In this document: piece by piece, positions 1 to 58,300 of the stretch
Position numbering within the stretch: position 1 is the stretch's first letter
Layout of the letters: every line of letters starts with the position of its first letter
NCBI GenBank assembly: GCA_001783065.1
Contig: MFQN01000019.1
Coordinates: 309-64,308, forward strand
Direction: 5' to 3'
Source of the DNA: Candidatus Magasanikbacteria bacterium RIFCSPLOWO2_12_FULL_43_12
GTDB taxonomy: Bacteria; Patescibacteriota; Patescibacteriia; Magasanikbacterales; UBA922
DNA: 64,000 nucleotides
Translations under genes and position numbers: made by a program
Notes under the pieces: model-generated
Seen by the model: the letters and a program-made list of their open reading frames with translations, nothing else
Databases searched by the model: none
What the model was told of the DNA's origin: nothing

Positions 1-1
1 T

Positions 2-1381
2 ATTTTAGCGCACGATGTTCAGCGCGCGGTGGATATGGAGGCGTTTAATCTGTATTTCCAGCTTTTATACGTGCCAGAACCGCGTACAATGTTTAAAAAT
101 ATAAAAAAACTGCCACCAGCGCACTATTTGCGTTTTAGAAATAATCAAATTAGTTTAGAAAGATACTGGCAGGTGGAAGATTTTTCCAATTTATCATCTT
201 ATGATGACGCAAAAAAACAAATCAAAACTCTTTTTCGCGACGCGATTCAAAAACAGTTGATTTCCGACCGGCCGGTGGGTGTCTTTCTTTCCGGCGGCAT
301 GGATTCCAGCGCGGTTTTGGGGGCGGTGAAAGAATTTCACGGCGGTAAAATAAAGACTTTTTCGGTTGGTTTTAAGGAGAGTACTGACCCAAATAAATTT
401 AACGCGGATTTTGAATTGGCGCGGAAGACAGCCAAACATTACAGCACTGATCATCACGAGCTTTTGGTTGGACCAGAAGATATAAAAGATAATTTGGAAA
501 AAATTGTTTGGCATTTGGATGAGCCGAATTCAAATGCCACGGCTGGCGCTGTGTTTTTGCTTTCACAATTGGCCAAACAAGAGGTGGCCGTGGTGCTGGG
601 AGGAGACGGTGGAGATGAATTGTTCGGCGGTTATCCGCGCTATTATTACAGCGCGTTGATTTCACTGGCCCGGCATTTGGTCCCTGGAATGATTAGAAAA
701 CTTATATCGCTAAAACTAAATTTACCCGCGAATGAACAAAGAATAGCGGCCTTTTTATGTCAGAAGCCGGCATTACTCGCCAAAGTTATTAACACGGGAG
801 TAATTAATCAGCAAGCGGCCACTTCTTATCTTAAGAGGCGGTTTTTCCCCAATCATCTGTGTAATCCTTTGTTAAATCAGTGTAATCAATGCTCTGATTT
901 TGAAAAATATTTCATGAATGTGGATCGCCAGAGCTGGCTGGTTGACGAATCGCTTTTGCGTACGAATAAAATGAGCATGGCTTTTGGGTTGGAGTCGCGA
1001 GTGCCAATTTTAGATCATCGTTTGATAGAATTGTCAGCGCGGATTCCTACCGCGTGGAAACTTTCGTTGTTGCAACGCCCGTCAGCATTTCAAGGCAAAC
1101 GGATTTGGCGCGACGCGATTCATGAGTATTTGCCAAACCATGTTTTGAATCAACAAAAGCGCGGTTGGTTCACGCCAATGGCTAAGTGGTTGCGTGGCGG
1201 ATTGCGAGATTTCGCGATAGAAATCTTATCACCGCAGAATTTGCCCGCGGAATATTTTAATACTTCTGAAGTGCAGAAAGTTTTTATTGATCATTTGGAA
1301 AGCAGGGAATATAATTTAAATATCGTTTGGGCTACGGTAATGTGGACATTGTGGTATCAGGAGTTTATTAAACACAGTTAG
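2..1381 (+). CDS. Asparagine synthetase (glutamine-hydrolysing)-like amidotransferase, C-terminal synthetase domain only; 5' end runs off the window (AsnB/WbpS-like)
   Basis: The reading frame is open upstream to the window edge. It has the PP-loop ATP pyrophosphatase motif SGGMDSS and a conserved AsnB C-terminal region (LGGDGGDELFGGY). WbpS-type amidotransferases are common in glycan loci. Confidence 0.8.
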   Translation: MLAHDVQRAVDMEAFNLYFQLLYVPEPRTMFKNIKKLPPAHYLRFRNNQISLERYWQVEDFSNLSSYDDAKKQIKTLFRDAIQKQLISDRPVGVFLSGGMDSSAVLGAVKEFHGGKIKTFSVGFKESTDPNKFNADFELARKTAKHYSTDHHELLVGPEDIKDNLEKIVWHLDEPNSNATAGAVFLLSQLAKQEVAVVLGGDGGDELFGGYPRYYYSALISLARHLVPGMIRKLISLKLNLPANEQRIAAFLCQKPALLAKVINTGVINQQAATSYLKRRFFPNHLCNPLLNQCNQCSDFEKYFMNVDRQSWLVDESLLRTNKMSMAFGLESRVPILDHRLIELSARIPTAWKLSLLQRPSAFQGKRIWRDAIHEYLPNHVLNQQKRGWFTPMAKWLRGGLRDFAIEILSPQNLPAEYFNTSEVQKVFIDHLESREYNLNIVWATVMWTLWYQEFIKHS

Positions 1382-1385
1382 TTAT

Positions 1386-2867
1386 ATGTCTAAAAAACAA
1401 GAAATTTTCGTCCTTGCTTTGATTATGTTGGCGGCAGTGTTTTTATCTTCTTACTGTTTAAAAACCAGCCCGGCTTTTTGGTTTGATGAGGGGATTTTCT
1501 ATCAAGTTGTGAATAATTTGGCTGTCAATGGTCAATTGGGATTACCATTGTCGCCAACCACTTCAAGTGATCTATCTTTGATTTCCATGGGGTATCCAAT
1601 ATTTTTACCAGCCGTCTTGGCTTTTAAGATTTTTGGTTCGGGGGTGATAGTCATACGAATGGTAGCCATTGCCTTTTTGCTGGGATTTTTTATAGTTGCT
1701 TTTTTTCTAGCGAAAAAATTATATGGTTTACGAGTTGCTCTGGCTACGATGTTGCTTTTGGTAACTTTTTCTCCGCTTTATGGCAATGGTAAAAGTTTTT
1801 TGGGCGAAGTGCCCGGATTATTCTTTTTTCTGACGGGATTATTTATTTTGACTATTTTGGAACAATCAAAAATAAAGAGAATTTATTTGGCTTTTTTGGG
1901 AGGTATATTTTTCGGTTTTGCCGTTAGCGCTAAGCCGATATTTATTTTGATTTTACCGGCTCTCGCCGCTGGCCTTGCGGTACAGTGGCGCAATTTTTTG
2001 GCCAGTCGTCAAGATCGGCGAATTACCATTGCGCTCTTGGTGGGTTTGGGGTTTGCGGTGAACGTCTGGGTTTGGACACAGTTTGATCTTTCCACGACGT
2101 CAATTTCTTCAGTCTTTGGCCATTTTGTGAATCCAAATCATCTAGATAAAACGGCCCCGGCCATTTTTGTCAATTTATTGCGTTTTTTCACTGAATCAAC
2201 CCCGATGTTTTTTTTACTTCAATTATGTTTGGCGGTGTATTATTTTTTTTATTGTTTTAAGCGCCGCATCCATATTTCTGCCACGAAAACAATCATTTTT
2301 ACTTTTGCATTTTTGATTTTTGCCGCGTATCTTAGGAATGTTGGTTGGTATCGTTATTTTTTTCCTGGCCAGGTGATGGTTTATTTCTTTATGATTCCGG
2401 GTCTGTTAGCAATAGAAACAAAAATAAAAAACAGCAAATATTATGGACGTTATTTTGTACCTATTGTGTTTTCTGCAATCCTTGTGGTACAGATTTTACC
2501 CTTGTCAAAAAATGCTTTAACGTGTATTATTGATGCGCCAACTGCTATTGAGCCGTATTTAAAATCTCTAGACGAACATAGCCCAGTTCTTTTTTATAGT
2601 CTGCCCCAATTGGCGGCACGCTATGAAGGTTCAGCTGCCTATCAATATATCAAGATGAATAAAACTGTGATATTGGGTGAGGATAATTTAGATCTATTGA
2701 ATCAAGATTTTTTTTCTAGGATTTTTATTGAGGAGAATGATATGGTTGGAAAAGAACAACTCCCCTCATGTTTTAAATTAGATCAAACAATTCGTGGTAT
2801 AGATATATATCGACGAGATTTACAAATTTCCTGCAAAGCAACCACGTCAAGTGAGTCAAATATATGA
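1386..2867 (+). CDS. Polytopic membrane glycosyltransferase, PMT_2 / ArnT-like (GT39/GT83-type GT-C fold)
   Basis: There are at least 10 predicted TM helices. The N-terminal loop (WFDEG...Y...N...G) is typical of ArnT/PMT_2 family proteins. Confidence 0.6.
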   Translation: MSKKQEIFVLALIMLAAVFLSSYCLKTSPAFWFDEGIFYQVVNNLAVNGQLGLPLSPTTSSDLSLISMGYPIFLPAVLAFKIFGSGVIVIRMVAIAFLLGFFIVAFFLAKKLYGLRVALATMLLLVTFSPLYGNGKSFLGEVPGLFFFLTGLFILTILEQSKIKRIYLAFLGGIFFGFAVSAKPIFILILPALAAGLAVQWRNFLASRQDRRITIALLVGLGFAVNVWVWTQFDLSTTSISSVFGHFVNPNHLDKTAPAIFVNLLRFFTESTPMFFLLQLCLAVYYFFYCFKRRIHISATKTIIFTFAFLIFAAYLRNVGWYRYFFPGQVMVYFFMIPGLLAIETKIKNSKYYGRYFVPIVFSAILVVQILPLSKNALTCIIDAPTAIEPYLKSLDEHSPVLFYSLPQLAARYEGSAAYQYIKMNKTVILGEDNLDLLNQDFFSRIFIEENDMVGKEQLPSCFKLDQTIRGIDIYRRDLQISCKATTSSESNI

Positions 2868-3829
2868 ATAAAAAATTGGTGAATATAAATATAAATTTTG
2901 ATTCTTTATTTTTTCCATTATCAATTGATCGGTGTTCCATGACAGACCCGTCCTTTTTTGTTATTGCTGATAGATTTTTTGAATTTTCACTAAAATATAA
3001 TTTCAAATACACAATATTTATTATTGGCAAGGATCTGGAGAACCCCGAAGTGGCGGCGCGGGTTCGTTCTTGGGCGGAGGCGGGACACGAAATCGGCAAT
3101 CATTCTTATACTCACAACCCAAATCTCGGGAGTTTATCTAGACAGGAAATGGAATTTGAGGTGATGAAATCTCACGAACTTATAACTAACTGTATCGGTT
3201 ATGAACCTAAAGGTTTTATCAGTCCATCTTGGAGTACCAGTGGTGATTTGATTGAAATTTTAATGAAAGCGGGTTATATTTATGATACTTCAGTTTTTCC
3301 TTCTTATTTTCAGTATTTCGTATTAATGAAATTGATGTTTTTGACCGGCCAAAAACATCCAAATTTTCATCCGAGTTTTGGTCTTCGTCGTGATAAGTTG
3401 GCGTTCTTTTTTGCTCCCCGTCGTCCTTATTTTATAGGTCCGGAATCTTTGATTAAAAAGAAATCCGAGGGTTTGCTGATGCTTCCGCTTCCTGTTGCCA
3501 CCGCCCTGCGTATACCCTGCTGGCATACTATGTATTTTGTTTTTGGTAAACATCTTATGAATTGGCTTTTACTAAAAACTATACGTGAACACGAGTATTT
3601 TTATTATTTGGTTCACCCAAAGGATTTAGTAAACTATAAGACCGATTTATTGGATGAATTTAAAAATAAATATAATACTGAATTAGCTGTTTTCGAAAGT
3701 TTGAAAATGCCAATTGAGGAAAAGACGTCATATATGGATCAGGCATTGAGTTTGTTAGCAGCTAGTGGTAGAAAATTTGTAACCATGCGAAAGATGGCGG
3801 AGAATATAATTCAGCAGTCAAAATTATAA
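2864..3829 (+). CDS. Polysaccharide deacetylase family protein (CE4/NodB homology; ArnD-like deformylase/deacetylase candidate)
   Basis: IGNHSYTHNPNL matches the H-S/T-x-x-H metal-binding motif 2 of NodB-type deacetylases. It shares a 4-bp overlap with the upstream gene. Confidence 0.6.
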   Translation: MNKKLVNININFDSLFFPLSIDRCSMTDPSFFVIADRFFEFSLKYNFKYTIFIIGKDLENPEVAARVRSWAEAGHEIGNHSYTHNPNLGSLSRQEMEFEVMKSHELITNCIGYEPKGFISPSWSTSGDLIEILMKAGYIYDTSVFPSYFQYFVLMKLMFLTGQKHPNFHPSFGLRRDKLAFFFAPRRPYFIGPESLIKKKSEGLLMLPLPVATALRIPCWHTMYFVFGKHLMNWLLLKTIREHEYFYYLVHPKDLVNYKTDLLDEFKNKYNTELAVFESLKMPIEEKTSYMDQALSLLAASGRKFVTMRKMAENIIQQSKL

Positions 3830-3837
3830 GTATTGTT

Positions 3838-4620
3838 ATGCGCATTGTAATTTTCACCGAGGAGGAATACACTTTTATGTTTGAGCCCTTCCGGCAGTTA
3901 TTGCGTGATTTAAAACACGCAGGACACCAGACGGTCGGGATTTTTATTTTTCCGGCGATTTTGGGAAAATATAAAGGTTTCCGGATTTATTTATATTATC
4001 TTAAAACATTTGGATTAAGTGTTTTCGTTAAATTAGTCATAATGGTATTGGGAGAGATAATTAGGCGTTTTTTTCGCTCTTTTTGGAATAAAGAGCCATA
4101 TAACTATCGCGCTTTGGGAAAAGAGTTTGGGGTGCCAATAATTTATGAAAAGAACCCCAATAGTTCAGGAGTAGTTGGGTGGGTTCAGGAAAATAATGTT
4201 GATGTAATTTTTATTTCTTTTGGTCATATAATTAAGAATCCGCTTATCCATGCTGCGAAGATTGCTGTGGTAAATAAGCACAGCGCCCTCTTGCCGGCCT
4301 ATCGTGGCCTTTTTCCGGTTTTTTGGACGCTATTGGAAGGAAAAATTTCGGTTGGATCCACAGTACACAAAGTGGTATCTGCTATTGACGCCGGAGAGAT
4401 TCTCTTCCAGAGATCTTATGACCATCTTGAAAATAAAACGGTTTTTTGCTATTATAAACAAATATATTCCGATTTACCAAGTTCTTTGTTACGGTCGCTT
4501 GAAATTCTTGAGGGCAAACGTCAGAAAGAAATGATAGTTAATACGTTACCTTCGTATTTTGGTTTACCTTCCAGAGCTGATTATAAAAGATTATTAAATA
4601 AAGGATATAAATTTATATGA
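3838..4620 (+). CDS. Formyltransferase domain protein (Fmt/PurN/ArnA-N-terminal-like sugar N-formyltransferase)
   Basis: HSALLPAYRG matches the H-x-S-L-L-P-x-x-R-G formyltransferase catalytic motif, followed by a hydrophobic stretch. It has an N-terminal hydrophobic insertion. Confidence 0.7.
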   Translation: MRIVIFTEEEYTFMFEPFRQLLRDLKHAGHQTVGIFIFPAILGKYKGFRIYLYYLKTFGLSVFVKLVIMVLGEIIRRFFRSFWNKEPYNYRALGKEFGVPIIYEKNPNSSGVVGWVQENNVDVIFISFGHIIKNPLIHAAKIAVVNKHSALLPAYRGLFPVFWTLLEGKISVGSTVHKVVSAIDAGEILFQRSYDHLENKTVFCYYKQIYSDLPSSLLRSLEILEGKRQKEMIVNTLPSYFGLPSRADYKRLLNKGYKFI

Positions 4621-5540
4621 AAATTCTTATTACCGGCGGAGCCGGATTTCAAGGCAGTCATCTGGCAGAACGGCTAAATCAGCTCGGGCATGAAGTAAGC
4701 ATCCTTAATACTTTGACTCCGCAGTCTTCGGGCAACAAAAAATATCTGGAAGGGAAGTGCGAGGTTATTTGGGGTTCTATCACTGACGCTGAAGTTACTG
4801 AAAAAGCGATGCGAGACAAGGAAGTTGTTTACCATTTAGGGGCGCGAATCAATGTTGATGAGTCAATCCAGCATCCTTGGGAGACGGTTGAAGTGAATGT
4901 GCGCGGCACCTTAAACGTGCTGGAGGCGGCGCGAAAGTCCGGAGCTCGCGTTATTCACACGTCCACGTGCGAAGTGTATGGCCGGCCGGAGCGCACGCCG
5001 ATAACGGAAACCGCTGAATTAAGGCCGATGAGTCCATATGCCGCGTCAAAAGCCGGAGCTGATCGCCTTTGTTTTGCTTACGTCCAAACTTATAAAATGA
5101 ATATAATAATTCCGCGTTTTTTCAATATTTTTGGCGAACGGCAAAAAGAATCTAATTTTGGCGCCGTGATTCCGATTTTCGTCGGCCGCGCTATGCGCGG
5201 CGAACCGATTAAAGTTTTTGGCAGCGGCCAGCAGACGCGCGATTATGTTTATATTTCTGATGTTATTGACGCTTATTGTCTCTTATTGGATCATCCGGAG
5301 TTGTCCGGCGAGGCAATCAATTTCGGCAGCGGCATCGGCACGCGCATTCGCGATATCGCTGAATATATTGCAAAAAAATTTAATACACAGGTAGAATACA
5401 CCGAGCCGCGGCCAGGCGAGGCATCAGAAATGGTGGCCGACTATTCTAAAGCTAAAAGACTGTTGGGTTGGGAGCCGAAGGTTAATTTTTATGAAGGGTT
5501 GGACCGCTATATCACCTGGAGGAAAAATTTGAATGTATGA
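4617..5540 (+). CDS. NAD-dependent epimerase/dehydratase (extended SDR; GalE/UXS-like UDP-sugar 4-epimerase or decarboxylase)
   Basis: It has an N-terminal GGAGFQGSHL Rossmann motif, the catalytic PYAASK (YxxxK) and an FNIFGERQ motif. It overlaps the downstream gene by ATGA. Confidence 0.8.
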   Translation: MKILITGGAGFQGSHLAERLNQLGHEVSILNTLTPQSSGNKKYLEGKCEVIWGSITDAEVTEKAMRDKEVVYHLGARINVDESIQHPWETVEVNVRGTLNVLEAARKSGARVIHTSTCEVYGRPERTPITETAELRPMSPYAASKAGADRLCFAYVQTYKMNIIIPRFFNIFGERQKESNFGAVIPIFVGRAMRGEPIKVFGSGQQTRDYVYISDVIDAYCLLLDHPELSGEAINFGSGIGTRIRDIAEYIAKKFNTQVEYTEPRPGEASEMVADYSKAKRLLGWEPKVNFYEGLDRYITWRKNLNV

Positions 5541-6625
5541 AAAAGAAATTTTGTTTAATCTTTGGCACCAGGCCGGAAATCATTAAAATGGCCCCGTTTA
5601 TTCATGAGGCCATAAAACGTAAAATAAATTTTTTCGTCATTCATACCGGCCAGCATTACTCGGAAGTGATGGATAAGGTTTTTTGGGAGAATTTGGAATT
5701 GCCGGATCCCAAATACAATCTTGGCGTCGGTTCCGGAAGCCACGCGGAACAAGTCGGCAAGATGATGATTGAGACTGAAAAAGTTTTGCAGGTAGAAAAA
5801 CCTGATTATGTCTGCGTGTACGCTGATTTAAATAGTTCTATTGCCGGGGCATTGACCGCGGCAAAAATGGGGATTTCCATCGTTCAATTAGAAGCAGGTT
5901 TGCGTTCCTTTGACCGCGCGATGCCGGAAGAAGTTAATCGCTTGGTGGTAGACAGATTAGCGCAATATTTTTTTGCCCCCACCGAACTTCAACACCAGCA
6001 TTTGCTGGCCGAGGGAATTTCTCAAAATATTTTTGTGGTGGGCAATTTAATTGCTGATGTCATCGCAAAAAATTTATCTAAGGCTTTGGATAGCAGCGCC
6101 ATTATGGGATATTTGGCCTTAACTCCTAAAAATTATTTTTTAATGACTACCCATCGTCCGGCTGTGGTTGATAAAAAGGAAGTTTTCTCAAAAATTTTCA
6201 CTGCCGTAGGCAGAGTAGCCAATGAATTTAATTTGCCGGTTATTTATCCGATCCATCCTCGGTCTAGAAAAAATTTAGAAAATTTTTCTTTGATTGTTCC
6301 GACCGATGTGCGTTTGATAGATCCTTTGGGCTATTTTGATTTTTTAACTCTTTCAGCAAATGCCAAGTTGATTTTATCTGATTCCGGCGGCATCCAAGAA
6401 GAAGCGGCGATTATGCGCGTGCCACTCGTCACTTTGCGCGAGAATACCGAGCGCCAAGAAACTCTTACTCTTGGGTCAAATATTTTGGCAGGCTTTGAAC
6501 CAATCGCTATTCTTGAAAAAACGCAAGAAATGCTGGAAAGGCCTGCCAATTGGCAGCATCCTTACGGTGAAAACGTGGCAAAAAAAATGTGGGATGTCTT
6601 GGAGCGAGCCGCAAGTATCAATTGA
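5537..6625 (+). CDS. wecB: UDP-N-acetylglucosamine 2-epimerase (non-hydrolysing)
   Basis: FGTRPEIIKMAP, HTGQHY, HRP and DSGGIQEEA motifs are diagnostic of the WecB/MnaA family. Length is 362 aa. Confidence 0.85.
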   Translation: MKKKFCLIFGTRPEIIKMAPFIHEAIKRKINFFVIHTGQHYSEVMDKVFWENLELPDPKYNLGVGSGSHAEQVGKMMIETEKVLQVEKPDYVCVYADLNSSIAGALTAAKMGISIVQLEAGLRSFDRAMPEEVNRLVVDRLAQYFFAPTELQHQHLLAEGISQNIFVVGNLIADVIAKNLSKALDSSAIMGYLALTPKNYFLMTTHRPAVVDKKEVFSKIFTAVGRVANEFNLPVIYPIHPRSRKNLENFSLIVPTDVRLIDPLGYFDFLTLSANAKLILSDSGGIQEEAAIMRVPLVTLRENTERQETLTLGSNILAGFEPIAILEKTQEMLERPANWQHPYGENVAKKMWDVLERAASIN

Positions 6626-6637
6626 TTTTTTCTTTGT

Positions 6638-7360
6638 ATGACAGAAGTCAACCGCAAACTGTCAGTGATTATCCCTTGCTGCAATGAGGAACAAAATATT
6701 CCGCGTTTTACCACGGAGCTGTGGCCGATTTTAGAATCACTGAAATTGGATTTTGAGGTGATTATAGTTGATGATGGTTCTAAAGATAATACCGTCGTTG
6801 AGGTTAAAAAAATAAATAAACCACAATTGCGCTTGGCGCGGCATGAAGTAAACACGGGGCTGGGCGCGGCGATGCGCACCGGGATTACCGCTGCCACGGG
6901 ATATTGGTTGATTTTTTTAGATGCTGACCTTACTTTTCATCCAAATATTATTCCAAATTTATTGGAGACGGCAGATAAGCATCCGGATGCGGATTTTGTC
7001 ATCGGTTCGCCAAATTTAGGCGGTTATGGCAAAGATATTCCGGCTTGGCGGCTTTGGATCAGCAAACTGGCGAACTTAATCTACCGCGTGTTATTGGGCC
7101 GGCCAGTGACTTCAATCAATCAAATTTTTCGTTTATACAAAACGGAGCAATTAAAACAACTGTCATTGTCGGCGGTTGGATTTGACATCAACGCCGAGAT
7201 TTTATTCAAACTGGTTTTTAGCGGCAGAAAGTTTAAGGAGGTGCCGGCGGAATTAACTGCGCGCCTGTTTGGTGTTTCAAAATTGAATTATGGCCGCGAG
7301 ATTAGGCGGCATTTGGTATTGGTATTTAAAATTTTGAAATGGAAATTTTTTGGATTTTGA
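6638..7360 (+). CDS. Family 2 glycosyltransferase, polyprenyl-phosphate sugar synthase type (DPM1/ArnC-like)
   Basis: LSVIIPCCNEEQNI, IIVDDGSKDNT and DADL are the GT2 DXD and nucleotide-binding motifs. 240 aa, soluble. Confidence 0.75.
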   Translation: MTEVNRKLSVIIPCCNEEQNIPRFTTELWPILESLKLDFEVIIVDDGSKDNTVVEVKKINKPQLRLARHEVNTGLGAAMRTGITAATGYWLIFLDADLTFHPNIIPNLLETADKHPDADFVIGSPNLGGYGKDIPAWRLWISKLANLIYRVLLGRPVTSINQIFRLYKTEQLKQLSLSAVGFDINAEILFKLVFSGRKFKEVPAELTARLFGVSKLNYGREIRRHLVLVFKILKWKFFGF

Positions 7361-7363
7361 AAT

Positions 7364-8308
7364 ATGTTTGAGTTTGCGGGCAAAAAAATATTGGTTACCG
7401 GAGGGGCGGGTTTTTTAGGTAATGCCGTTGTTAAGGAATTGGCAAAGCAAGGAGTTAACCAAACCGACATTGCCGTTCCCCGTTCGCGGGAATTTGATTT
7501 GCGGGAAAAAAATAATTGTCTGCTTCTGACTCGGGACGTAGATTTGGTGCTCCACCTCGCGGGGAATGTCGGTGGGATCGGGAAGAATCAACGGTTGCCG
7601 GGGACCTTATTTTACGACAACGCGATAATGGGAATTGAGTTAATGGAAGCGGCGCGAAAAAATCAAGTGAAAAAATTTGTTTGTTTGGGGACTATTTGCG
7701 CCTATCCTAAATATACGCCGGTGCCTTTTCGCGAGGAGGATTTGTGGATCGGCTATCCGGAAGAAACCAACGCGTCTTACGGCTTAGCCAAGAAAATGCT
7801 TTTAGTTCAGGCACAGGCTTATCGCCAAGAATTTGGTTTTAATGTTATCTATTTATTGCCGGTAAATATGTATGGGCCAGGGGATAATTTTAATCCGGAC
7901 AGTTCGCATGTTATACCCGCCACGATAAAAAAGATTTGCGATGCTAAAACTAGAGGAGATGAATTCGTGGAGATGTGGGGAGACGGCACGCCGACGCGCG
8001 AATTTTTGTATGTGGAAGACGCCGCGCGCGGCATTATCTTGGCCGCGCAATATTATGACAAAGCGGAACCGGTAAATTTGGGGTCTGGCGGAGAAATTTC
8101 CATTAAAGATTTGGTGACATTCATCGCCGGAATGCTGGAGTTTAAAGGCGAGATCCGCTGGGATACCAGTAAGCCTAATGGCCAGCCGCGACGGCTTTTA
8201 GACGTATCGCGAGCGGAAAAAGAATTTCAATTTAAAGCGCAAGTATCATTTAGAGATGGTTTGCAAAAAACAATTGAATGGTATTTAAAAAATATCAACT
8301 ATGAATAA
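7364..8308 (+). CDS. fcl: GDP-L-fucose synthase-like (GDP-4-keto-6-deoxy-D-mannose 3,5-epimerase/4-reductase family)
   Basis: The GGAGFLG Rossmann motif, ICAYPK...P..E, YGLAKK and YGPGDNFNPDSSHVIPA closely match the conserved Fcl/WcaG blocks (NLYGPHDNFHPSNSHVIPA). Confidence 0.75.
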   Translation: MFEFAGKKILVTGGAGFLGNAVVKELAKQGVNQTDIAVPRSREFDLREKNNCLLLTRDVDLVLHLAGNVGGIGKNQRLPGTLFYDNAIMGIELMEAARKNQVKKFVCLGTICAYPKYTPVPFREEDLWIGYPEETNASYGLAKKMLLVQAQAYRQEFGFNVIYLLPVNMYGPGDNFNPDSSHVIPATIKKICDAKTRGDEFVEMWGDGTPTREFLYVEDAARGIILAAQYYDKAEPVNLGSGGEISIKDLVTFIAGMLEFKGEIRWDTSKPNGQPRRLLDVSRAEKEFQFKAQVSFRDGLQKTIEWYLKNINYE

Positions 8309-9557
8309 AAATGAACACCAATGGCGAACGCGTTACTATAATCATTTGTTTGAGCGGTTTTTTCAGTTTATAATTCCTCCCGGAGCGTCAGTGCTTGAAA
8401 TCAGCGTTGGAATTCAGGAATTGAAAAGACAAGAAAAATTCGACTTTGTGCTATTGCCTAATGTGATTGGCAGTTTGGACGATGTGCAGAAGTGTTTTGA
8501 GGAATTACATCGAGTGGTAGATGAGCAAAGTAGAGTTATTATCACTTCGTATAATCATCTTTGGAGCGGTGTGTTAAGATTGTTAGAGTGGCTACGTCTT
8601 AAAACAGCCCAGCCGAATCAGAATTGGCTTTCCAGCCAAGATGTTGTAAATTTATTGTCTTTGGCGCGGTTTGAAATAGTAAAAAGGGGAGCGTTTATTC
8701 TGTTTCCCATATATGTGCCGATAGCGTCGTCTTTTTTAAATAAATACTTGGCCCGTTTGCCGTTAATACGTCATTTGTGTCTGGTTAATTATTTTGTGGC
8801 GCGGCCGTGTTTTAATCATTATTCAGATAAAGAATATACAGTTTCGGTAATTATTCCGGCTCGCAACGAGGCGGGTAATATTGAGAATGCAATAACCCGT
8901 TTGCCGAGGCTTGGCAGCCGGACGGAAATAATTTTTGTGGAAGGCGGGTCAAGAGACAATACTCGCGACGATATATTCAGGGTTATAGAAAAATATAAAG
9001 ACAAGAAAGATATAATCTTTGTTAACCAGGGAGGCGGAAAGGGCAAGGGTGACGCGGTTCGTAAAGGGTTCGCGCGCGCGACCGGCGACATATTGATGAT
9101 TCTTGACGCGGATTTGACAGTTCAGCCGGAAGATTTGCCGAAATTTTATCAAGCCATCCGCACCCGCCAAGGGGAGTTTATTATGGGTACGCGGCTGGTT
9201 TATCCGATGGAAAAAGACGCCATGCGATTTTTGAATATCATTGGCAATAAATTTTTTAGCCTGGCTTTCAGCTGGCTGTTAGAGCAGCCGATAAAGGATA
9301 CTCTGTGCGGCACAAAAGTTATTTTCAGAAAAGATTATGAAAGGTTGGCGCAAAACCGTTCATATTTTGGCGATTTTGATCCGTTTGGCGATTTTGATTT
9401 AATCTTTGGAGCGGCGAAGATGAATTTAAAGATAGTGGAAATCCCAATTCGTTATCAAGCGAGGAAATACGGTTCCACTAATATCAGCCGGTTTAGCCAC
9501 GGCTGGTTGTTGCTGAAAATGACAGTGTTTGCCGCGCGGAAGATAAAATTTATTTAG
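8301..9557 (+). CDS. Two-domain protein: N-terminal degenerate class-I methyltransferase-like domain fused to a family 2 glycosyltransferase
   Basis: The N-terminal ~170 aa carry VLEISVG and FDFVLL...RVIIT MTase-like motifs without an intact glycine loop. The C-terminal half has GT2 motifs SVIIPARNEAGNI, VEGGSRDNT and DADL. Confidence 0.65.
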   Translation: MNKNEHQWRTRYYNHLFERFFQFIIPPGASVLEISVGIQELKRQEKFDFVLLPNVIGSLDDVQKCFEELHRVVDEQSRVIITSYNHLWSGVLRLLEWLRLKTAQPNQNWLSSQDVVNLLSLARFEIVKRGAFILFPIYVPIASSFLNKYLARLPLIRHLCLVNYFVARPCFNHYSDKEYTVSVIIPARNEAGNIENAITRLPRLGSRTEIIFVEGGSRDNTRDDIFRVIEKYKDKKDIIFVNQGGGKGKGDAVRKGFARATGDILMILDADLTVQPEDLPKFYQAIRTRQGEFIMGTRLVYPMEKDAMRFLNIIGNKFFSLAFSWLLEQPIKDTLCGTKVIFRKDYERLAQNRSYFGDFDPFGDFDLIFGAAKMNLKIVEIPIRYQARKYGSTNISRFSHGWLLLKMTVFAARKIKFI

Positions 9558-9564
9558 TGTTTTT

Positions 9565-10302
9565 ATGATTTTAGAACTTGATAGCGCCGAGAGTCTGTAT
9601 TTGCATCGCCGTCGGATAAGAGATAATAATTTTTTACGGCGGTTATACGAAGATTTTTATTTGGAAATTAAAAATTCCGGCTTGCCTGCCGGAACGGTGG
9701 TGGAGTTGGGTTCAGGGCCGGGATTTATCAAAAAGATCATCCCCAACACCATCACTTCTGATGTTATCAGCGGGCCGGATATCGATCAAACATTTTCCGC
9801 CGCCGCCATGCCTTTTACTTCAAACAGTATCGGCGCGTTTGTGATGTTTAATGTTTTTCACCATCTTAAAGAGCCGGAGCAGGCATTGCGCGAGATGGAA
9901 CGCTGTCTCATGCCGGGCGGTAAAATAGTTATGATTGAGCCGTATAATTCGGTGTGGGGTCATTTTGTCTATTCGCATTTTCATTACGAAGATTTTAATC
10001 CCATGGCCGGCTGGAAAATCGAGGGAGACGGCCGTCTTTCCGACGCTAACAATGCTATGCCATGGATAGTGTTTGTGCGCGATCAAGCGGTCTTTAGCAA
10101 AAAATTTCCTCTGTTAAATATTATGTGTCTTAGGGTTCATACGCCTTTCAGATTTATTATTTCCGGCGGCCTTACTAAACCGCAGTTATTGCCGGCGTTT
10201 TTATACCCAGCGGTTTGTTGGTTTGAAAAAATTATTAGTCCTTTCAATAAACAATTAGGTATGTTTGTTACTATTGAACTGCAAAAACGTCCTTCTTTGT
10301 AG
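9565..10302 (+). CDS. Class I SAM-dependent methyltransferase
   Basis: VVELGSGPGF (motif I) and LMPGGKIVMIEP (post-II) are present. 245 aa. Confidence 0.7.
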   Translation: MILELDSAESLYLHRRRIRDNNFLRRLYEDFYLEIKNSGLPAGTVVELGSGPGFIKKIIPNTITSDVISGPDIDQTFSAAAMPFTSNSIGAFVMFNVFHHLKEPEQALREMERCLMPGGKIVMIEPYNSVWGHFVYSHFHYEDFNPMAGWKIEGDGRLSDANNAMPWIVFVRDQAVFSKKFPLLNIMCLRVHTPFRFIISGGLTKPQLLPAFLYPAVCWFEKIISPFNKQLGMFVTIELQKRPSL

Positions 10303-16965: not shown

Positions 16966-18061
16966 AGTTATGCCTCACGAAGTTTTAAAGGAAAATTTGA
17001 TCAGCGTTATTGTCCCCGTTTACAATTGTGAAGATTATCTTGCCAATTGCGTTGAAAGCCTGATTGCCCAAAATTATAAAAATTTTGAAATTATTTTGAT
17101 TAATGATGGATCTACGGATAGGAGTGGAACAATCTGTCATTATTACGCGTCGCGCGACAGTGGAATTAAAGTGATTGATAAAAAAAATTACGGACCAGCG
17201 GCGGCTAGGAATGACGGTATCGCTCTGTCAAAGGGCGAGTTCATATTTTTTATTGACGCGGATGATTTAGTGGAACCGAATGCCATAAATTTGTTAATAG
17301 ATAGTTATCGTCAGAATAATGCGGAAATTGTCATTGGGGATTTTTATAAATTTGACGATGTTTCGCGTACTGATTCAGGCCATGGTCATTTTCTTTCTGA
17401 CAGTCTATTAATGACGAAGCCGGACATTGTGGATTACGCGCGTTCATATTTAAAAAAACCTAATCGATTTCCGTTGTTTGCTTATTCCTGGGGCAGACTT
17501 TTTAAGTCAGCTATTATCAAGAATAACAATATTTTGTTTAATGTTGATTTGCGGACTTTTGAAGATGTGGCTTTTAATTTTGACTATTTGAATTATGTTG
17601 ATAAAATATTTTTTTTGAAATCAGCTATCTATGGTCATCGCATATATCACCATTTTGCCTCGGCGACAATGGCCATTGGCGATGATTTTTATGGGATGTT
17701 TGGATATAAGAAAGCCTTGGAGGCAATCCGGAATTTTCTTAAAAATCATGATCCTACGATTAACCCGCAAAAAGAAATTGGGCATGCCGACATTTATTTG
17801 ACAATTATTCAGATAGTTCGCATTTGCGGGCAAATCAATCAGGCAAATAAAAAGAAGATTTACAATTTTATCCGCGCGATAATCGGCGATATGAATTTCC
17901 GTAATAACCTTCGATTTTATTCGCCATCAACCGGTGATAGTAAAATTCTTCCTGTTTTGATGAAGCTGAAACTCGTTTGGCCGATTATTATGGTGTGTAA
18001 ATACAAGGCTGATAGAAGGTATAAAAAAACAACAAAAAAATCATATGAATTTAGACGATGA
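16946..18061 (+). CDS. Family 2 glycosyltransferase
   Basis: ISVIVPVYNCEDYL, ILINDGSTD and IDADD are present. An alternative start at 16970 (MPHEV...) would remove the overlap with the upstream gene. Confidence 0.7.
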   Translation: MDWKLFEVMPHEVLKENLISVIVPVYNCEDYLANCVESLIAQNYKNFEIILINDGSTDRSGTICHYYASRDSGIKVIDKKNYGPAAARNDGIALSKGEFIFFIDADDLVEPNAINLLIDSYRQNNAEIVIGDFYKFDDVSRTDSGHGHFLSDSLLMTKPDIVDYARSYLKKPNRFPLFAYSWGRLFKSAIIKNNNILFNVDLRTFEDVAFNFDYLNYVDKIFFLKSAIYGHRIYHHFASATMAIGDDFYGMFGYKKALEAIRNFLKNHDPTINPQKEIGHADIYLTIIQIVRICGQINQANKKKIYNFIRAIIGDMNFRNNLRFYSPSTGDSKILPVLMKLKLVWPIIMVCKYKADRRYKKTTKKSYEFRR

Positions 18062-19274
18062 TTTTTCCGTCCAACAAACCATTCTGGATCTTAAAATTAC
18101 GATTTTACCGATAATCATTTTTGGCAGTGGAATTGTTGGAGAAGTATTGTTTAAAGCATGTGAAAATACCGGTATTAAAGTTACCGGTTTTTGTGATAAT
18201 AATATAAAAAAAACAAAAGATTCCAAGTGCGGAATCCCAGTGTTCTTTACGCCGGAATTAAAAAGTAAATATTCCGATGCCGTTGTTTTGATATCAGCCG
18301 CCGACATTCGAGACGCAATTACTCAATTGCAAAGTTTAAAATTTTATAAATGGGCCCCCTGCACTTTTTTATTGAGAGACTTCAATACATACCAGCACCA
18401 ATTCAGCGCGCCTGGAGATTTTGTCCAGTATGCTACCGATACTTGTATTCTATGTCATGATAGTTATTCACTTCCGGACAAACTTTTTTTAAGAAGCGTA
18501 GATATAGTGATAACGGAAAGATGTTCGCTTAAATGCAGGGATTGTTCTAATCTGATGTCGTATTATCAAAAACCGATGAACTGCGATTCGCAGGAATTAA
18601 TTAAAACCATAGATGCCTTTTGTAACATTGTAGATGAAGTTAATGAGTTTAGAGTATTAGGCGGTGAGCCGTTTATGAATCCAGAGTTTGATATAATTAT
18701 AGATAGACTGATGTCAGAACCCAAAGTTAAAAAAATAATCGTATATACAAATGGGACCATCGTTCCATCAGATGGAAAAATTCAATGTTTGAAGAGTAAA
18801 AAAACGCTTTTGATAATAACTGATTATGGGCCGGCGCTTTCTAAGAATCTGGGGATTTTGACAGAAAAACTGTTAAGCGAGGGGATTTCATATTTCGTGC
18901 AAAAGGCGGGTGGATGGACAGATTGTAATAAAATAGCGAGAAATTATAGGAATTCTTTTCAGCAAATGGAAATTTTTGACAATTGTTGCGCCAAAAATAC
19001 CATTACAATTTCGGAAGGGAAGCTGCACCGATGTCCTTTTGCCGCGAATGCCATGAGGCTGAGAGCGGTGCCTGATTTTAATGACGATTATGTGGAGTTT
19101 ATGCAAACACGAGATGATCATAGCGAAATAAAAAAGAAAATCAGGTCATTTTTATTTGATAAGAAATTTTTAGCGGTCTGCGATTATTGCAGAGGAAGGT
19201 CGTTTGGAGATGAAGAAATACCGTCAGCAATTCAGGCTGATAAATCATTAGACTATGAACGATATCAATACTAA
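18045..19274 (+). CDS. Radical SAM enzyme with N-terminal Methyltransf_14-like (NDP-sugar-binding-like) domain and C-terminal Cys-rich (SPASM/twitch-like) region
   Basis: It has a CX3CX2C motif (ERCSLKCRDC) and a GGEPF motif. The N-terminal ~100 aa (IIFGSGIVGEVLF...VVLISAAD) resemble the C-terminal domain of the adjacent C-methyltransferase. C-terminal cysteines are CCAKN...CPF...CDYCRG. Confidence 0.6.
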   Translation: MNLDDDFSVQQTILDLKITILPIIIFGSGIVGEVLFKACENTGIKVTGFCDNNIKKTKDSKCGIPVFFTPELKSKYSDAVVLISAADIRDAITQLQSLKFYKWAPCTFLLRDFNTYQHQFSAPGDFVQYATDTCILCHDSYSLPDKLFLRSVDIVITERCSLKCRDCSNLMSYYQKPMNCDSQELIKTIDAFCNIVDEVNEFRVLGGEPFMNPEFDIIIDRLMSEPKVKKIIVYTNGTIVPSDGKIQCLKSKKTLLIITDYGPALSKNLGILTEKLLSEGISYFVQKAGGWTDCNKIARNYRNSFQQMEIFDNCCAKNTITISEGKLHRCPFAANAMRLRAVPDFNDDYVEFMQTRDDHSEIKKKIRSFLFDKKFLAVCDYCRGRSFGDEEIPSAIQADKSLDYERYQY

Positions 19275-22926: not shown

Positions 22927-22981
22927 TTTCAGATTCTAAGATGGCTATTGATTTTAAAATTTATTTAAGTTTAATTAACAT

Positions 22982-42291: not shown

Positions 42292-42296
42292 AAATA

Positions 42297-42325
42297 TTGA
42301 CTTTAATTCAGGTTTAGTCTAAAAT
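42297..42325 (+). promoter_or_regulatory. sigma70-type promoter TTGACT-N17-TAAAAT driving the + strand B12-rSAM/ABC operon
   Basis: -35 at 42297-42302, -10 at 42320-42325, spacer 17 nt. The predicted start is ~80 nt upstream of ATG 42410. Confidence 0.5.
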
Positions 42326-42335
42326 AAGCCCATAT

Positions 42336-42364
42336 ATTATATAGATTTGCCCCACGGAAGTCAA
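42336..42364 (-). promoter_or_regulatory. sigma70-type promoter TTGACT-N17-TATAAT on the minus strand driving the Capsule_synth gene
   Basis: The reverse complement reads TTGACT(42364-42359)-N17-TATAAT(42341-42336). It is interleaved with the + strand promoter, forming a near-symmetric 68-bp element. Confidence 0.5.
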
Positions 42365-42409
42365 ATTTGTTTTATTTGTAAGAGTTGAGTTTTTAGCCAA
42401 TATATATCT

Positions 42410-43831: not shown

Positions 43832-43832
43832 T

Positions 43833-45617: not shown

Positions 45618-45635
45618 AGTTTAAAACAAAGGTAT

Positions 45636-48806: not shown

Positions 48807-48807
48807 T

Positions 48808-53982: not shown

Positions 53983-54009
53983 AAAAAGTATCGCGGAATT
54001 ATTTTTGCT

Positions 54010-55690: not shown

Positions 55691-55702
55691 TCATTCTATG
55701 TT

Positions 55703-56890: not shown

Positions 56891-56900
56891 AGACCAAGAT

Positions 56901-58286: not shown

Positions 58287-58300
58287 AAGAATTTATTATT

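Follow-up and report, generated by a model that had tools for sequence, protein, structure and literature searches.

In the Arn system, a formyltransferase (the ArnA N-domain) formylates a transaminase-derived nucleotide amino sugar, a GT2 (ArnC) loads the formylated form alone, the CE4 deacylase ArnD removes the formyl group, and a GT-C protein (ArnT) transfers the cationic, free-amine sugar to the envelope. ArnD acts on the lipid-linked sugar at the cytoplasmic face (PMC10967932). An initial annotation had proposed the same logic, with a formyl group transiently protecting the amine, for an operon of Candidatus Magasanikbacteria (CPR) from groundwater, within the 64,000 nt of contig MFQN01000019.1 analysed here (the window). 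We find that the operon resembles the Arn system in layout and appears to differ from it in what the formyl group is for.

Results

Six plus-strand open reading frames (1386-2867, 2864-3829, 3838-4620, 4617-5540, 5537-6625 and 6638-7360) encode, in this order, a PMT_2-type GT-C protein, a cytoplasmic CE4 deacylase, a stand-alone formyltransferase (FT), an extended SDR, WecB and a short DPMS/ArnC-like GT2; gene set, positions and domain calls agree with the initial annotation. The junctions among them measure -4 to +12 bp, i.e., the genes abut or overlap, and the six form a portion of a ten-gene run (29-10302) that holds no aminotransferase, no UDP-glucose dehydrogenase (UGDH) gene and no ArnE/F-like gene. 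The run opens with an asparagine-synthase-type amidotransferase (29-1381, plus strand; Asn_synthase 273 bits), whose 5' end is cut by the window and which comprises 617 aa in the full contig; in locus L001 the full-length enzyme, with GATase domains, is seen. Any role of it in the module is putative. Separated from the GT2 gene by 3 bp and in the same operon, a GDP-fucose-synthase-like SDR of the 3,5-epimerase/4-reductase type (7364-8308, plus strand; NF047922 Fcl 276 bits, cutoff 500) could reduce a 4-keto sugar received from the SDR at 4617. It is followed by a fusion of a methyltransferase and an AglJ/DPMS-like GT2 (8301-9557, plus strand; Glycos_transf_2 93 bits, methyltransferase domains, AglJ TIGR04182 97 bits), a candidate for the operon's second lipid-phosphate sugar synthase. 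The window as a whole is a single large glycan island holding many parallel pathways.

The FT (3838-4620, plus strand) is of the N10-formyl-THF type and matched Formyl_trans_N alone (62 bits); the domain search found neither an Fmt/ArnA-type C-terminal subdomain nor the tRNA-binding Formyl_trans_C, in line with its annotation as stand-alone. Residues N146, H148 and D184 are invariant and correspond to N102, H104 and D140 of ArnA, and the LLP..RG motif is likewise invariant. The structural model (pLDDT 93.8) resolves a family-specific insertion of ~45 residues as a helix (48-84), the hydrophobicity of which varies across the family. In Foldseek, the best six matches were the ArnA N-domain (7e-15), followed by Fmt (8e-14), and the family HMM gave 103 bits for EcArnA and 87 bits for EcFmt. 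The ArnA N-domain is thus the nearest solved relative by three methods (phmmer, HMM, Foldseek), with a narrow lead over Fmt. The family comprises ~1330 cluster representatives at E<=1e-30; in one member, P0226, the FT is fused to a membrane-embedded GT2 and so located at the membrane.

The neighbouring CE4/NodB-fold metal-dependent de-N-acylase (2864-3829, plus strand; Polysacc_deac_1 57.8 bits) is cytoplasmic, with no TM segment, signal peptide or export signal predicted. Columns D13, H80, H84 and ~37 more are invariant among 24 homologues. In Foldseek, the AlphaFold model (pLDDT 93) matched 3qbu (4e-11), 3rxz (3e-10) and, as the third-closest solved fold, ArnD (8t0j, 5.5e-8); by BLAST, identity to E. 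coli ArnD is 21% (E 2e-4). The D-x-D motif of ArnD is altered in the window-type CE4 family, its first Asp being replaced by Asn or His. Because the catalytic residues are retained (N/H/D in the FT, D/H/H in the CE4), both enzymes are probably active, and the CE4 is predicted to de-N-acetylate the HexNAc that the GT2 handles. In JGI, the name 'methionyl-tRNA formyltransferase' is given to some homologues of the FT and 'PgdA/CDA1 family' to some of the CE4, and Fmt scores close to ArnA, all of which would fit a Met-tRNA formyltransferase beside a PgdA-type peptidoglycan deacetylase. However, this housekeeping reading is exceedingly improbable and effectively refuted by the scores (FT 67 bits, fmt cutoff 201.5; CE4 48 bits, PgdA cutoff 400), the missing signal peptide and TM anchor of the CE4, the missing Formyl_trans_C of the FT, and the location of both genes in a glycan operon with conserved synteny.

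The extended SDR (4617-5540, plus strand; Epimerase 218 bits) had been likened to the ArnA C-domain and UXS, an assignment that did not hold, and its lack of the YDEGK motif had been recorded correctly, with YAASK in its place. NCBIfam scores were 207 (LegB), 202 (RmlB), 163 (GalE), 78 (UXS) and 61 bits (ArnA), each under its cutoff, and the PDB matches were Pal (175 bits), TmGalE (169 bits) and hUXS1 (165 bits). Aligned with E. coli RmlB, Gmd, GalE and ArnA, its active site (S-T-C-E-V-Y-G, Y-A-A-S-K) is dehydratase-like. Thr-x-Glu, as in dehydratases and decarboxylases, stands where GalE has Ser-Ala-Thr, and a GalE-type epimerase was rejected on this ground. A UDP-GlcA decarboxylase was rejected on the YAASK motif, the low UXS and ArnA scores and the missing carboxylate-binding Arg of ArnA. 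Orthologues of the SDR occur together with wecB in five loci (L095, L097, L098, L012 and L014). The WecB-family protein itself (5537-6625, plus strand) is a non-hydrolysing UDP-N-acetylhexosamine 2-epimerase (TIGR00236 332 bits, cutoff 210; NeuC model 67 bits). A wecB gene occurs within the available flanks of 13 FT loci, directly after the FT in L108-L113, L116 and L117. WecB is the predicted conserved sugar supplier of the module, and the substrate would therefore already be N-acetylated.

The GT2 (6638-7360, plus strand; 240 aa, GT2 domain 112 bits) belongs to the polyprenyl-phosphate sugar synthases (DPMS/ArnC/GtrB-like) and lacks TM helices. Its best PDB matches were Pyrococcus DPMS (PfDPMS; 1e-23 over residues 6-236), ArnC (2e-15) and GtrB (2e-12). 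It shares 27% identity with E. coli ArnC across 223 aa, with FGVSKLNY aligned to FGESKYSF of ArnC and an invariant DAD motif, and 50% identity with the GT2 that abuts the CE4 in L005. In L007, L013 and L015, its orthologues are fused to a GT-C domain (GT2 domains matching at 204-261 bits). In the window, two membrane proteins could partner it. The first (1386-2867, plus strand; PMT_2 27.5 bits, cutoff 26.1) has ~10 hydrophobic TM segments and, in its first loop on the extracytoplasmic side, a D34-E35 motif (DEGIFY after TM1), shows no similarity to E. coli ArnT by BLAST and no PDB sequence match, and is predicted to move the lipid-linked sugar onto an acceptor. Its gene overlaps the start of the CE4 by 4 bp, and in four loci (the window, L011, L012 and L105) the gene immediately preceding the CE4 encodes a GT-C protein. 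The second (33236-35002, plus strand; 588 aa, roughly 10 TM, GT-C fold, no Pfam match) would be a partner transferase in place of the first or besides it, given its homology to the membrane domain of the GT2 fusions. As a phmmer query it matched the L013 and L015 fusions at E 7e-13 to 3.5e-9 (7e-12 to 5e-7 in reverse) and L007_619 at ~1e-12, the L007 fusion itself being matched much more weakly (1.6e-4 / 7.6e-3). By hhalign, its family matched a PMT_2/ArnT-like set with 95.9% probability (E 5.7e-9).

Of 22 informative FT loci, which come from unrelated samples and several phyla, 20 have the CE4 adjacent to the FT, usually overlapping it. The recurrence of this arrangement in unrelated samples and taxa means that it is not due to chance. 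GT2s of the window type and GT-C proteins are found together with the pair, and a marine clade has the order CE4-FT-wecB. A compact marine module consists of a GT2, a polytopic membrane protein, the CE4, the FT and wecB, with only an ABC-2-type transporter pair and housekeeping genes downstream. In more distant relatives, a GT2 is commonly paired with a CE4 in the absence of an FT.

Arn-type logic, in which the FT would formylate a transaminase-made nucleotide amino sugar, the GT2 would load only the formylated form, the CE4 would deformylate it and the GT-C would deliver the cationic sugar, is suggested by the co-conservation of all four enzyme classes. The first rank of the ArnA N-domain among FT matches, the place of ArnD among the folds closest to the CE4 and the 4-bp overlap that E. 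coli arnA/arnD likewise show point the same way, as does the Thr-x-Glu of the SDR, a motif of makers of 4-keto sugars, which are the usual transaminase substrates. In L005, a DegT gene and a GFO gene without an acetyltransferase stand beside the pair, which fits Arn-like use of the FT there; in L012, which has no FT, a GFO/DegT/Hexapep trio is present and the acetyl group could be a transient protecting group. We nevertheless consider this logic unlikely. The operon lacks an aminotransferase. DegT aminotransferases had been annotated elsewhere in the window, and four DegT-family genes are indeed present (31929, 36354 on the minus strand, 48808 and 52837), but the nearest, 31929, is RfbH, a 3-dehydrase and not an aminotransferase (699 bits, cutoff 423), and the other three have acyl-transfer or pathway partners of their own locally. 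Within the flanks inspected (<=10 kb, which bounds all neighbour-gene counts), only 4 of 22 FT loci have a DegT-family gene (in one case RfbH-like, in another joined to an acetyltransferase of its own in a fusion), as opposed to 13 with wecB, the supplier of an acetylated sugar; given these flanks, an aminotransferase could sit further off, as those of the window do. In the compact marine module, no aminotransferase was found in the 3 kb upstream and the 10 kb downstream, and the CE4 is the sole amine-forming enzyme. CE4s of FT-less loci sit within clades of FT-linked CE4s (bootstrap 92 and 74/88), from which it follows that the CE4 reaction is independent of the FT, as would be expected of a deacetylase if re-capping of its product is optional. 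The SDR unlike ArnA-C/UXS, the absence of UGDH and ArnE/F-like genes from the run and the small margin of ArnA over Fmt further argue against an Arn-type role of the formyl group.

Discussion

The proposed decoration of an envelope acceptor with an aminosugar via a polyprenyl-phosphate carrier is well supported by the DPMS/ArnC-like GT2, the GT2-GT-C fusions, the upstream GT-C genes, the cytoplasmic ArnD-like CE4 and the ArnA-N-like FT, whereas the Arn-specific part, transient formyl protection of a transaminase-made amine, is not. We propose instead, with a probability of roughly 0.5, that the N-acetyl group of the carrier-bound sugar is exchanged for N-formyl. Briefly, WecB and the dehydratase-like SDR, possibly with the Fcl-like reductase, would generate a UDP-2-acetamido sugar (ManNAc or a 6-deoxy-HexNAc), which the short GT2 would load onto polyprenyl phosphate at the cytoplasmic face. 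The ArnD-class CE4 would then take off the acetyl group, and the FT would formylate the freed amine with N10-formyl-tetrahydrofolate as donor. After a flippase has turned the lipid-linked N-formyl-hexosamine across the membrane, a GT-C protein (1386-2867 and/or 33236-35002) would transfer it to an extracytoplasmic protein, wall polymer or lipid. In a sub-variant, the CE4 and FT steps would take place on the nucleotide sugar, ahead of the GT2. The computations show the gene set, the catalytic residues, the folds and the conserved synteny and fusions; from these we infer which of the two enzymes acts first, the identity of the sugar and of the acceptor, and that the substrate is lipid-linked.

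Several observations speak against the exchange: the uneven hydrophobicity of the FT insertion, the replaced first Asp of the D-x-D motif in the CE4 family, the FT loci that lack a CE4 (L095, L097) and the gene content of L005 and L012. In the literature searched, we also found no N-formyltransferase with a lipid-linked sugar as substrate, nor one that works after a de-N-acetylase, and we know of none; to our knowledge, every characterised sugar FT acts on nucleotide sugars, with which the PDB matches of the FT are consistent. The two enzymes might accordingly share an operon and not act consecutively, an ordinary nucleotide-sugar FT feeding cytoplasmic glycan assembly while a distinct, Lgm/Flm/PpgS-like route made up of CE4, GT2 and GT-C supplies a de-N-acetylated hexosamine. 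The parallel pathways of the island, the FT-less GT2 + CE4 pairs of distant relatives and two loci with an FT and no CE4 (L095, L097) would suit this explanation. Yet we regard it as improbable: stop/start-overlapping adjacency in unrelated taxa is far tighter than co-location within an island, and the FT family with its specific insertion adjoins the CE4 family and not aminotransferases. Moreover, a second, canonical FT is already encoded elsewhere in the genome, at 50108-50830, where its gene overlaps one of the DegT family, so that the canonical layout of aminotransferase and then FT is visible in the same genome.

With acetyl-to-formyl exchange as the preferred reading, the most likely role of the operon is to place an N-acetyl-hexosamine on a lipid carrier in the membrane, replace the acetyl by a formyl group and join the product to a surface molecule; the CE4-FT gene pair that would carry out this swap is widespread and so far unstudied.

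Organization and conservation of the module

The six genes at 1386-7360, which the initial annotation had read as an Arn-like formylation/deformylation set, were all recovered on the + strand by an ORF scan with unchanged coordinates, and Pfam and NCBIfam scans bore out each of the domain calls: a PMT_2-type GT-C transferase (1386-2867, +; Pfam 27.5 bits, barely over the 26.1 cutoff), a NodB-fold CE4 deacylase (2864-3829, +; Polysacc_deac_1, 57.8 bits), a formyltransferase (FT) consisting of Formyl_trans_N alone (3838-4620, +; 62 bits), an extended SDR (4617-5540, +; Epimerase, 218 bits), WecB (5537-6625, +; 332 bits against a cutoff of 210), and a short GT2 (6638-7360, +; 112 bits). Together with four further genes they form a ten-gene run at 29-10302 that in all likelihood is one operon, because its gene junctions measure only -8 to +12 bp. 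The E. coli arn operon was retrieved, and each window protein was compared pairwise with its Arn counterpart.

GT2, CE4, FT and a GT-C are firmly linked through adjacency, GT2-GT-C fusions, GT-C genes upstream of CE4 and a GT2-FT fusion. We collected loci around FT and CE4 homologues (L numbers), querying genomes with the CE4 alignment and metagenomes with a closer FT alignment, and scored the ORFs found there by purpose-built HMMs; the genome scan was dominated by generic PgdA-like CE4s, with full-length relatives only in L015-L037. CE4 directly adjoins FT, mostly with overlapping genes, in 20 of the 22 informative FT loci. CE4-FT loci come, among others, from MAGs of Lentisphaerae (L011) and Gammaproteobacteria (L015), from a clade of marine metagenomes (L108-L116) and, in the case of L008, possibly from an archaeon. 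A GT2 of the window type adjoins CE4 in L005 (50% identical) and in many distant relatives (e.g., L022, L023, L025, L028, L030, L037). In L007 (4524-7118), L013 (11727-14351) and L015 (7470-10001), a GT2 domain orthologous to that of the window (204-261 bits) is joined, in one protein of 843-874 aa, to a membrane domain that has ~600 residues and ~10 TM segments. This membrane domain has no Pfam model, is of the PMT_2/ArnT-type GT-C kind by profile-profile comparison (95.9% probability, E 5.7e-9), and has stand-alone homologues in L005 (13495-15318), L007 (11060-12919) and the window (33236-35002). The fusion proteins thus indicate that GT2 and GT-C are functionally linked. GT-C-like genes also lie directly upstream of CE4 in the window, L011 (PMT_2), L012 (GT87) and L105 (PMT_2), and the 642-aa protein P0226 joins a GT2 of the Glyco_tranf_2_3 type, membrane-embedded and flanked by TM segments, to a C-terminal FT of the 3838 family. 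An apparent CE4-FT fusion in L105 was traced to a frameshift or to read-through in a contig of high GC content and rejected as an artefact; no such fusion is claimed. In L021, L024 and L032, GT2 and CE4 are genuinely fused in one ORF, but these cases count as indirect support only, their CE4 being of the DUF3473 subtype.

Co-encoding of a DPMS/ArnC/GtrB-class GT2 with a GT-C-fold transferase, which the window shows, is a feature of polyprenyl-phosphate monosaccharide decoration systems, and the general idea of a lipid-carrier aminosugar decoration, as first proposed, is backed by this linkage across loci and fusions. Of the FT loci, 13 contain wecB, and in the marine clade this gene comes right after FT. 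The module of L110 is compact: GT2 and a polytopic membrane protein of 463 aa stand with CE4, FT and wecB, and the genes downstream of wecB are limited to housekeeping genes and a pair of ABC-2-type transporter genes.

Assignment of the individual enzymes

The best relative of FT is the ArnA N-domain by phmmer against the PDB, by the family HMM (ArnA 103 bits, E. coli Fmt 87 bits) and by Foldseek, where the ArnA N-domain took the top six places for the predicted structure (pLDDT ~94; 7e-15, Fmt 8e-14). FT is 35% identical to ArnA over the 100-residue catalytic core, and the Asn/His/Asp triad (ArnA N102/H104/D140) is present in every family member. The margin of ArnA over Fmt is small, about 4-15 bits, and FT falls under every NCBIfam cutoff. 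The triad and the closest sequence and structural relative agree with the proposed ArnA-N likeness, but FT is a separate protein of 260 aa without the C-terminal subdomain that ArnA-N and Fmt both have, with Fmt close behind, and it carries a family-specific ~45-residue insertion that the model folds as a single 37-residue helix (residues 48-84). Tentatively, this insertion could act as a TM anchor; its hydrophobicity is not general through the family. A word-indexed search returned 21 relatives and an exhaustive profile search (E<=1e-30) ~1,330 cluster representatives, nearly all of 245-290 aa and full length. One family member, P0290, has a methyltransferase-like C-terminal extension.

The CE4 deacylase, whose family counts at least 292 matches, has marginal sequence similarity to ArnD (BLAST E 2e-4; family HMM 15 bits; identity 12-21%). 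The nearest distinct solved proteins to its model (pLDDT 93) are HP0310 (3qbu), 3rxz and then Salmonella ArnD (8t0j; Foldseek E 5.5e-8, TM 0.51/0.60), and 3RXZ and 3QBU are among the closest structural relatives of ArnD itself (PMC10967932). CE4 has neither a signal peptide, a hydrophobic N-terminus nor a TM segment, which points to a cytoplasmic enzyme like ArnD and unlike PgdA-type wall deacetylases; judged from its sequence, CE4 is predicted to act in the cytoplasm. Motif 1 reads NFDS, and the family has Asn or His at the first Asp of ArnD's D-x-D. CE4 probably belongs to the ArnD/HP0310 subclass. With ArnD, a membrane-associated cytoplasmic deformylase to which it was likened initially, it shares the fold neighbourhood and a predicted cytoplasmic location, but identity is low and the D-x-D motif is N-x-D here. 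The NodB model TIGR04243 gave 24 bits only.

Both families are now auto-named for housekeeping functions, 'Met-tRNA formyltransferase' and 'PgdA-family deacetylase', and the closeness of Fmt in the FT searches fits the former name. We nevertheless consider it extremely improbable that FT is Fmt and CE4 is PgdA. FT has no tRNA-binding Formyl_trans_C domain (PF02911), scores 67.2 bits against the 201.5 cutoff of TIGR00460, and ends ~50 residues past the catalytic Asp, so that Fmt identity, named beforehand as a possible objection to the Arn analogy, was rejected. CE4 has no export signal and no canonical TFDD, and PgdA models give 30-48 bits against cutoffs of 400-800, on which grounds a PgdA-type wall or exopolysaccharide deacetylase was rejected.

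The GT2 shares 27% identity over 223 aa and an FG(V/E)SK motif with ArnC, but has no TM helices, unlike ArnC with its C-terminal ones, scores 60.9 bits against the 529 cutoff of PRK10714, and is matched better by PfDPMS than by ArnC. Because Pyrococcus DPMS (1e-23), ArnC (2e-15) and GtrB (2e-12) are the solved proteins most similar to it, the GT2 is predicted by class to be a polyprenyl-phosphate monosaccharide synthase. The GT-C at 1386, expected to be ArnT/PMT_2-like, has its assignment from the PMT_2 Pfam match, but BLAST against E. coli ArnT found no similarity; a PDB sequence search gave no match. No small EamA/SMR-like ORF that could represent an ArnE/F flippase was found in the ORF list of 1-10302.

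In an alignment with E. coli RmlB, Gmd, GalE and ArnA, the SDR shows the motifs S-T-C-E-V-Y-G and Y-A-A-S-K. Its Glu is shared with 4,6-dehydratases and decarboxylases (RmlB TDE, Gmd TSE, ArnA TSE), whereas E. coli GalE has SAT and no Glu. NCBIfam scores were 207 for LegB, 202 for RmlB, 162.6 for GalE (TIGR01179, cutoff 262), 78 for UXS (cutoff 294) and 61 bits for ArnA (cutoff 777). A GalE-type 4-epimerase, another objection considered in the initial annotation, was rejected, the SDR having a catalytic T-C-E instead of S-A-T and a GalE score under those of LegB and RmlB. A UDP-GlcA decarboxylase of the UXS/ArnA-C type was likewise rejected; the SDR lacks an Arg at the carboxylate-binding ArnA R619 position, and the ArnA and UXS scores lie far under their cutoffs and far below LegB and RmlB, so that the proposed likeness to the ArnA C-domain or UXS had to be abandoned.

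Origin of the amine and the role of the formyl group

In the Arn scheme, the amine is made by transamination and then protected with formyl. A true Arn-type logic with a transient formyl group would agree with the ArnA-, ArnD- and ArnC-related folds described here, but we regard it as unlikely. Neither a DegT/ArnB-type aminotransferase nor a UDP-glucose dehydrogenase was found by ORF and Pfam scans of all ten operon genes (29-10302), and it is wecB, not DegT, that recurs with FT. A DegT-family gene occurs within the available flanks (<=10 kb) in four of the 22 FT loci; in one of these it is fused with an acetyltransferase of its own, and in another it is RfbH-like. In compact modules, CE4, acting on an N-acetylated sugar, is the only enzyme predicted to be able to free an amine. 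The initial annotation was hence right about the architecture, but the role it gave to the formyl group, protection of a transaminase-made amine, is probably wrong.

DegT aminotransferases had been noted elsewhere in the window, and it does hold four DegT-family genes, but the nearest (31929-33233) is not an aminotransferase; it is RfbH, the PMP-dependent 3-dehydrase of 3,6-dideoxyhexose synthesis (699 bits with NF011936, cutoff 423). An RfbH orthologue (602 bits) is present in CE4 locus L013. The DegT at 52837 is PseC, beside PseB and NeuB, and that at 36354 is accompanied by a hexapeptide acetyltransferase and a GDP-mannose dehydratase. The 3' end of the fourth, at 48808, is overlapped by a second FT (50108-50830) without the insertion; 48808-50830 is a canonical aminotransferase-then-FT arrangement, separate from the CE4-coupled FT in the same genome.

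The CE4 phylogeny bears on the same question. In a neighbour-joining tree, the CE4 of L013, a locus without FT, is sister to the window CE4 (bootstrap 92), and that of L012, also without FT, is sister to the L014 CE4 (bootstrap 74) within an 88% clade of FT-linked CE4s. Because these two CE4s nest among FT-linked ones, FT must have undergone two or more losses or replacements during which CE4 was kept, which fits a de-N-acetylase with optional re-capping, a dedicated deformylase being a poor fit. In these two close relatives, CE4 is followed by a methyltransferase and then a B12-radical-SAM enzyme (L012, 7448-9515) and by a NodU/CmcH-type carbamoyltransferase (L013, 10000-11718), which suggests other ways to cap the freed amine or to modify the sugar.

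A proposed acetyl-to-formyl exchange

It is attractive to propose that the module exchanges an acetyl for a formyl group on the same amine, a model to which we give about an even chance (roughly 0.5). Briefly, WecB, together with SDRs, would supply a UDP-2-acetamido sugar, the sugar of which would be placed onto polyprenyl phosphate by GT2. CE4 would then take off the acetyl group, FT would formylate the amine left behind, and the GT-C would move the N-formyl sugar to an acceptor beyond the membrane. Formyl would probably be the final substituent of the amine and not its temporary protection; the order of CE4 and FT, the lipid- or nucleotide-linked state of their substrate, which sugar it is and which acceptor is used are inferences. 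We know of no precedent for an FT of the kind the exchange model requires, and literature searches for a lipid-carrier system with CE4 and a formyltransferase, or for the making of 2-N-formyl hexosamines, brought up no pertinent work, which counts against the model.

Several observations speak against the exchange model. L005 has DegT and GFO genes without an acetyltransferase, and L012 has its own GFO/DegT/Hexapep set, so that in L012 acetyl could be a transient protecting group. The Asn or His at the first Asp of ArnD's D-x-D in the CE4 family, the limited spread of hydrophobicity in the FT insertion and flanks of at most 10 kb are further points against it. L095 (8837-11583) and L097 (2046-5873) encode FT with GT2, wecB and SDR but no CE4; in its place stands a 385-aa (alpha/alpha)6-barrel-like protein, followed by a 267-aa UDP-glucose-dehydrogenase-like fragment, and these gene sets are explained by neither the Arn scheme nor the exchange model. 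Such loci would accommodate CE4 and FT functions that are not consecutive, a reading we find improbable beside the close pairing of the two genes in most FT loci.

Extending the exchange model, it is conceivable, though rather doubtful, that CE4-FT is a widespread 'N-acyl editing' device for polyprenyl-phosphate-linked hexosamines, in which CE4 cuts off acetyl and an FT near the membrane puts formyl directly on the sugar while this is lipid-linked. A methyl- or carbamoyltransferase may stand in for FT in sister loci.

Relation to known systems

The Arn system of Enterobacteria (PmrHFIJKLM), which adds 4-amino-4-deoxy-L-arabinose to lipid A, resembles the window module in its ArnA-N-fold FT, ArnC/DPMS-like GT2, cytoplasmic NodB-fold deacylase (the CE4 neighbours include ArnD) and GT-C transferase; E. 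coli arnA and arnD overlap by 4 bp, and the window FT and CE4 genes adjoin. However, the window module is without the ArnB-type aminotransferase, UDP-glucose dehydrogenase, ArnA-C decarboxylase and ArnE/F, and its sugar supplier, unlike that of Arn, is WecB, which gives an N-acetylated hexosamine. The Arn acceptor is lipid A, which CPR bacteria are usually held to lack.

Comparable to the exchange model in the origin of the amine are Bordetella LgmABCD (GlcN on lipid A), Francisella FlmF2/NaxD/FlmK (GalN on lipid A) and Mycobacterium PpgS/Rv3779 (GalN on arabinogalactan), in which an ArnC-like GT2 loads UDP-HexNAc on polyprenyl phosphate, de-N-acetylation takes place on the lipid and a GT-C transfers the sugar to lipid A or arabinan. 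Amines arise there by deacetylation and not transamination, as in the exchange model, and the window GT2 matches the PpgS NCBIfam model weakly (37 bits). These systems end at the free amine and have no formyltransferase, whereas the window module has FT; NaxD is a YdjC-family deacetylase in contrast to CE4.

Nod factor tailoring comprises the NodC GT2, the CE4 de-N-acetylase NodB, the N-acyltransferase NodA, the N-methyltransferase NodS and the carbamoyltransferase NodU. As in the exchange model, a CE4 de-N-acetylates a GlcNAc-type sugar and a second enzyme re-substitutes the amine, and the methyltransferase of L012 and the carbamoyltransferase of L013 find parallels there. The Nod GT2, however, is a processive chitin-oligomer synthase, unlike the DPMS/ArnC-type lipid-phosphate monosaccharide synthase of the window, and the new acyl group is a fatty acyl chain instead of formyl from folate.

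Nucleotide-sugar formyltransferases (WlaRD, FdtF, QdtF, VioF, WbkC, PseJ) have the Formyl_trans_N core and N/H/D triad in common with the window FT, which scored 21-44 bits against them and 49-53 bits against ArnA or Fmt by phmmer (PDB). Their usual aminotransferase setting matches the second FT (50108-50830), whereas the FT at 3838 pairs with CE4 and has a helical insertion unique to it. Overall, the window module belongs to the polyprenyl-phosphate monosaccharide decoration kind, as do Arn, Lgm, Flm/NaxD, PpgS/Rv3779 and GtrABC. New is its conserved CE4-FT pair fed by WecB, for which no description was found in the searchable literature.

Further features of the glycan island

The window encodes at least five GT-C-like polytopic membrane proteins (1386, 10271(-), 11608(-), 33236, 34958(-)), and two more lie just upstream (L001 275-4514). 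For a CPR genome of small size, this is an unusual density of lipid-phosphate-sugar-dependent transferases. The second FT is a 240-aa protein with PurN-like best PDB and NCBIfam matches that overlaps the end of DegT 48808-50121, itself preceded by genes for a CMP-sugar-type cytidylyltransferase (47084-47845) and a GFO_IDH_MocA oxidoreductase (47814-48806); this oxidase, transaminase and N-formyltransferase set (47084-50830) probably leads to a 3-formamido sugar. A pseudaminic-acid-type nonulosonic acid pathway spans 51893-59365 (PseB 447 and PseC 441 bits, both above cutoff) and includes a NeuB/PseI-like gene at 58301-59365, while a second, cupin-fused NeuB (25180-26703) adjoins a HAD hydrolase and a TPP enzyme.

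Several radical-SAM enzymes of the island, in 18045-24130 and at 42410-43831, may perform C-methylation or other radical tailoring of sugars. Among them are a protein of 1223 aa that contains two B12-binding/radical-SAM modules (19255-22926) and one with a SPASM domain (22982-24130). The enzyme at 42410-43831, a B12-binding/radical-SAM protein, lies with a fused ABC exporter (43833-45617) between two KpsC/KpsS-like Capsule_synth genes (40780-42291, -; 45636-47072), so that this CPR bacterium has group-2-capsule-like export/assembly genes at 40780-47072. GC skew is above zero in almost all 2-kb bins of 1-64000, cumulative skew climbs monotonically and nearly all genes are on the + strand, which places the whole island on the leading strand of one replichore.

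Implications

To our knowledge, all N-formyl sugar routes start from a transaminase-made nucleotide amino sugar. If the exchange model is true, a route through a deacetylase and FT, possibly on a lipid carrier, would be a new biosynthetic logic, and it would give a function to a sizeable unannotated FT family (~1,300 clusters at 50% identity) and its partner CE4 family. If 'N-acyl editing' is true, FT would be the first known case of a formyltransferase that uses a glycan precursor linked to lipid, N-formyl sugars would arise by a new route without an aminotransferase, and CPR bacteria and several other phyla would diversify their surfaces in this way. A set of formyltransferase, CE4, GT2 and GT-C genes need not signify Arn-type polymyxin resistance. 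CPR bacteria live attached to host cells and their envelopes are almost unstudied; for these organisms, the module indicates a specific, testable surface modification.
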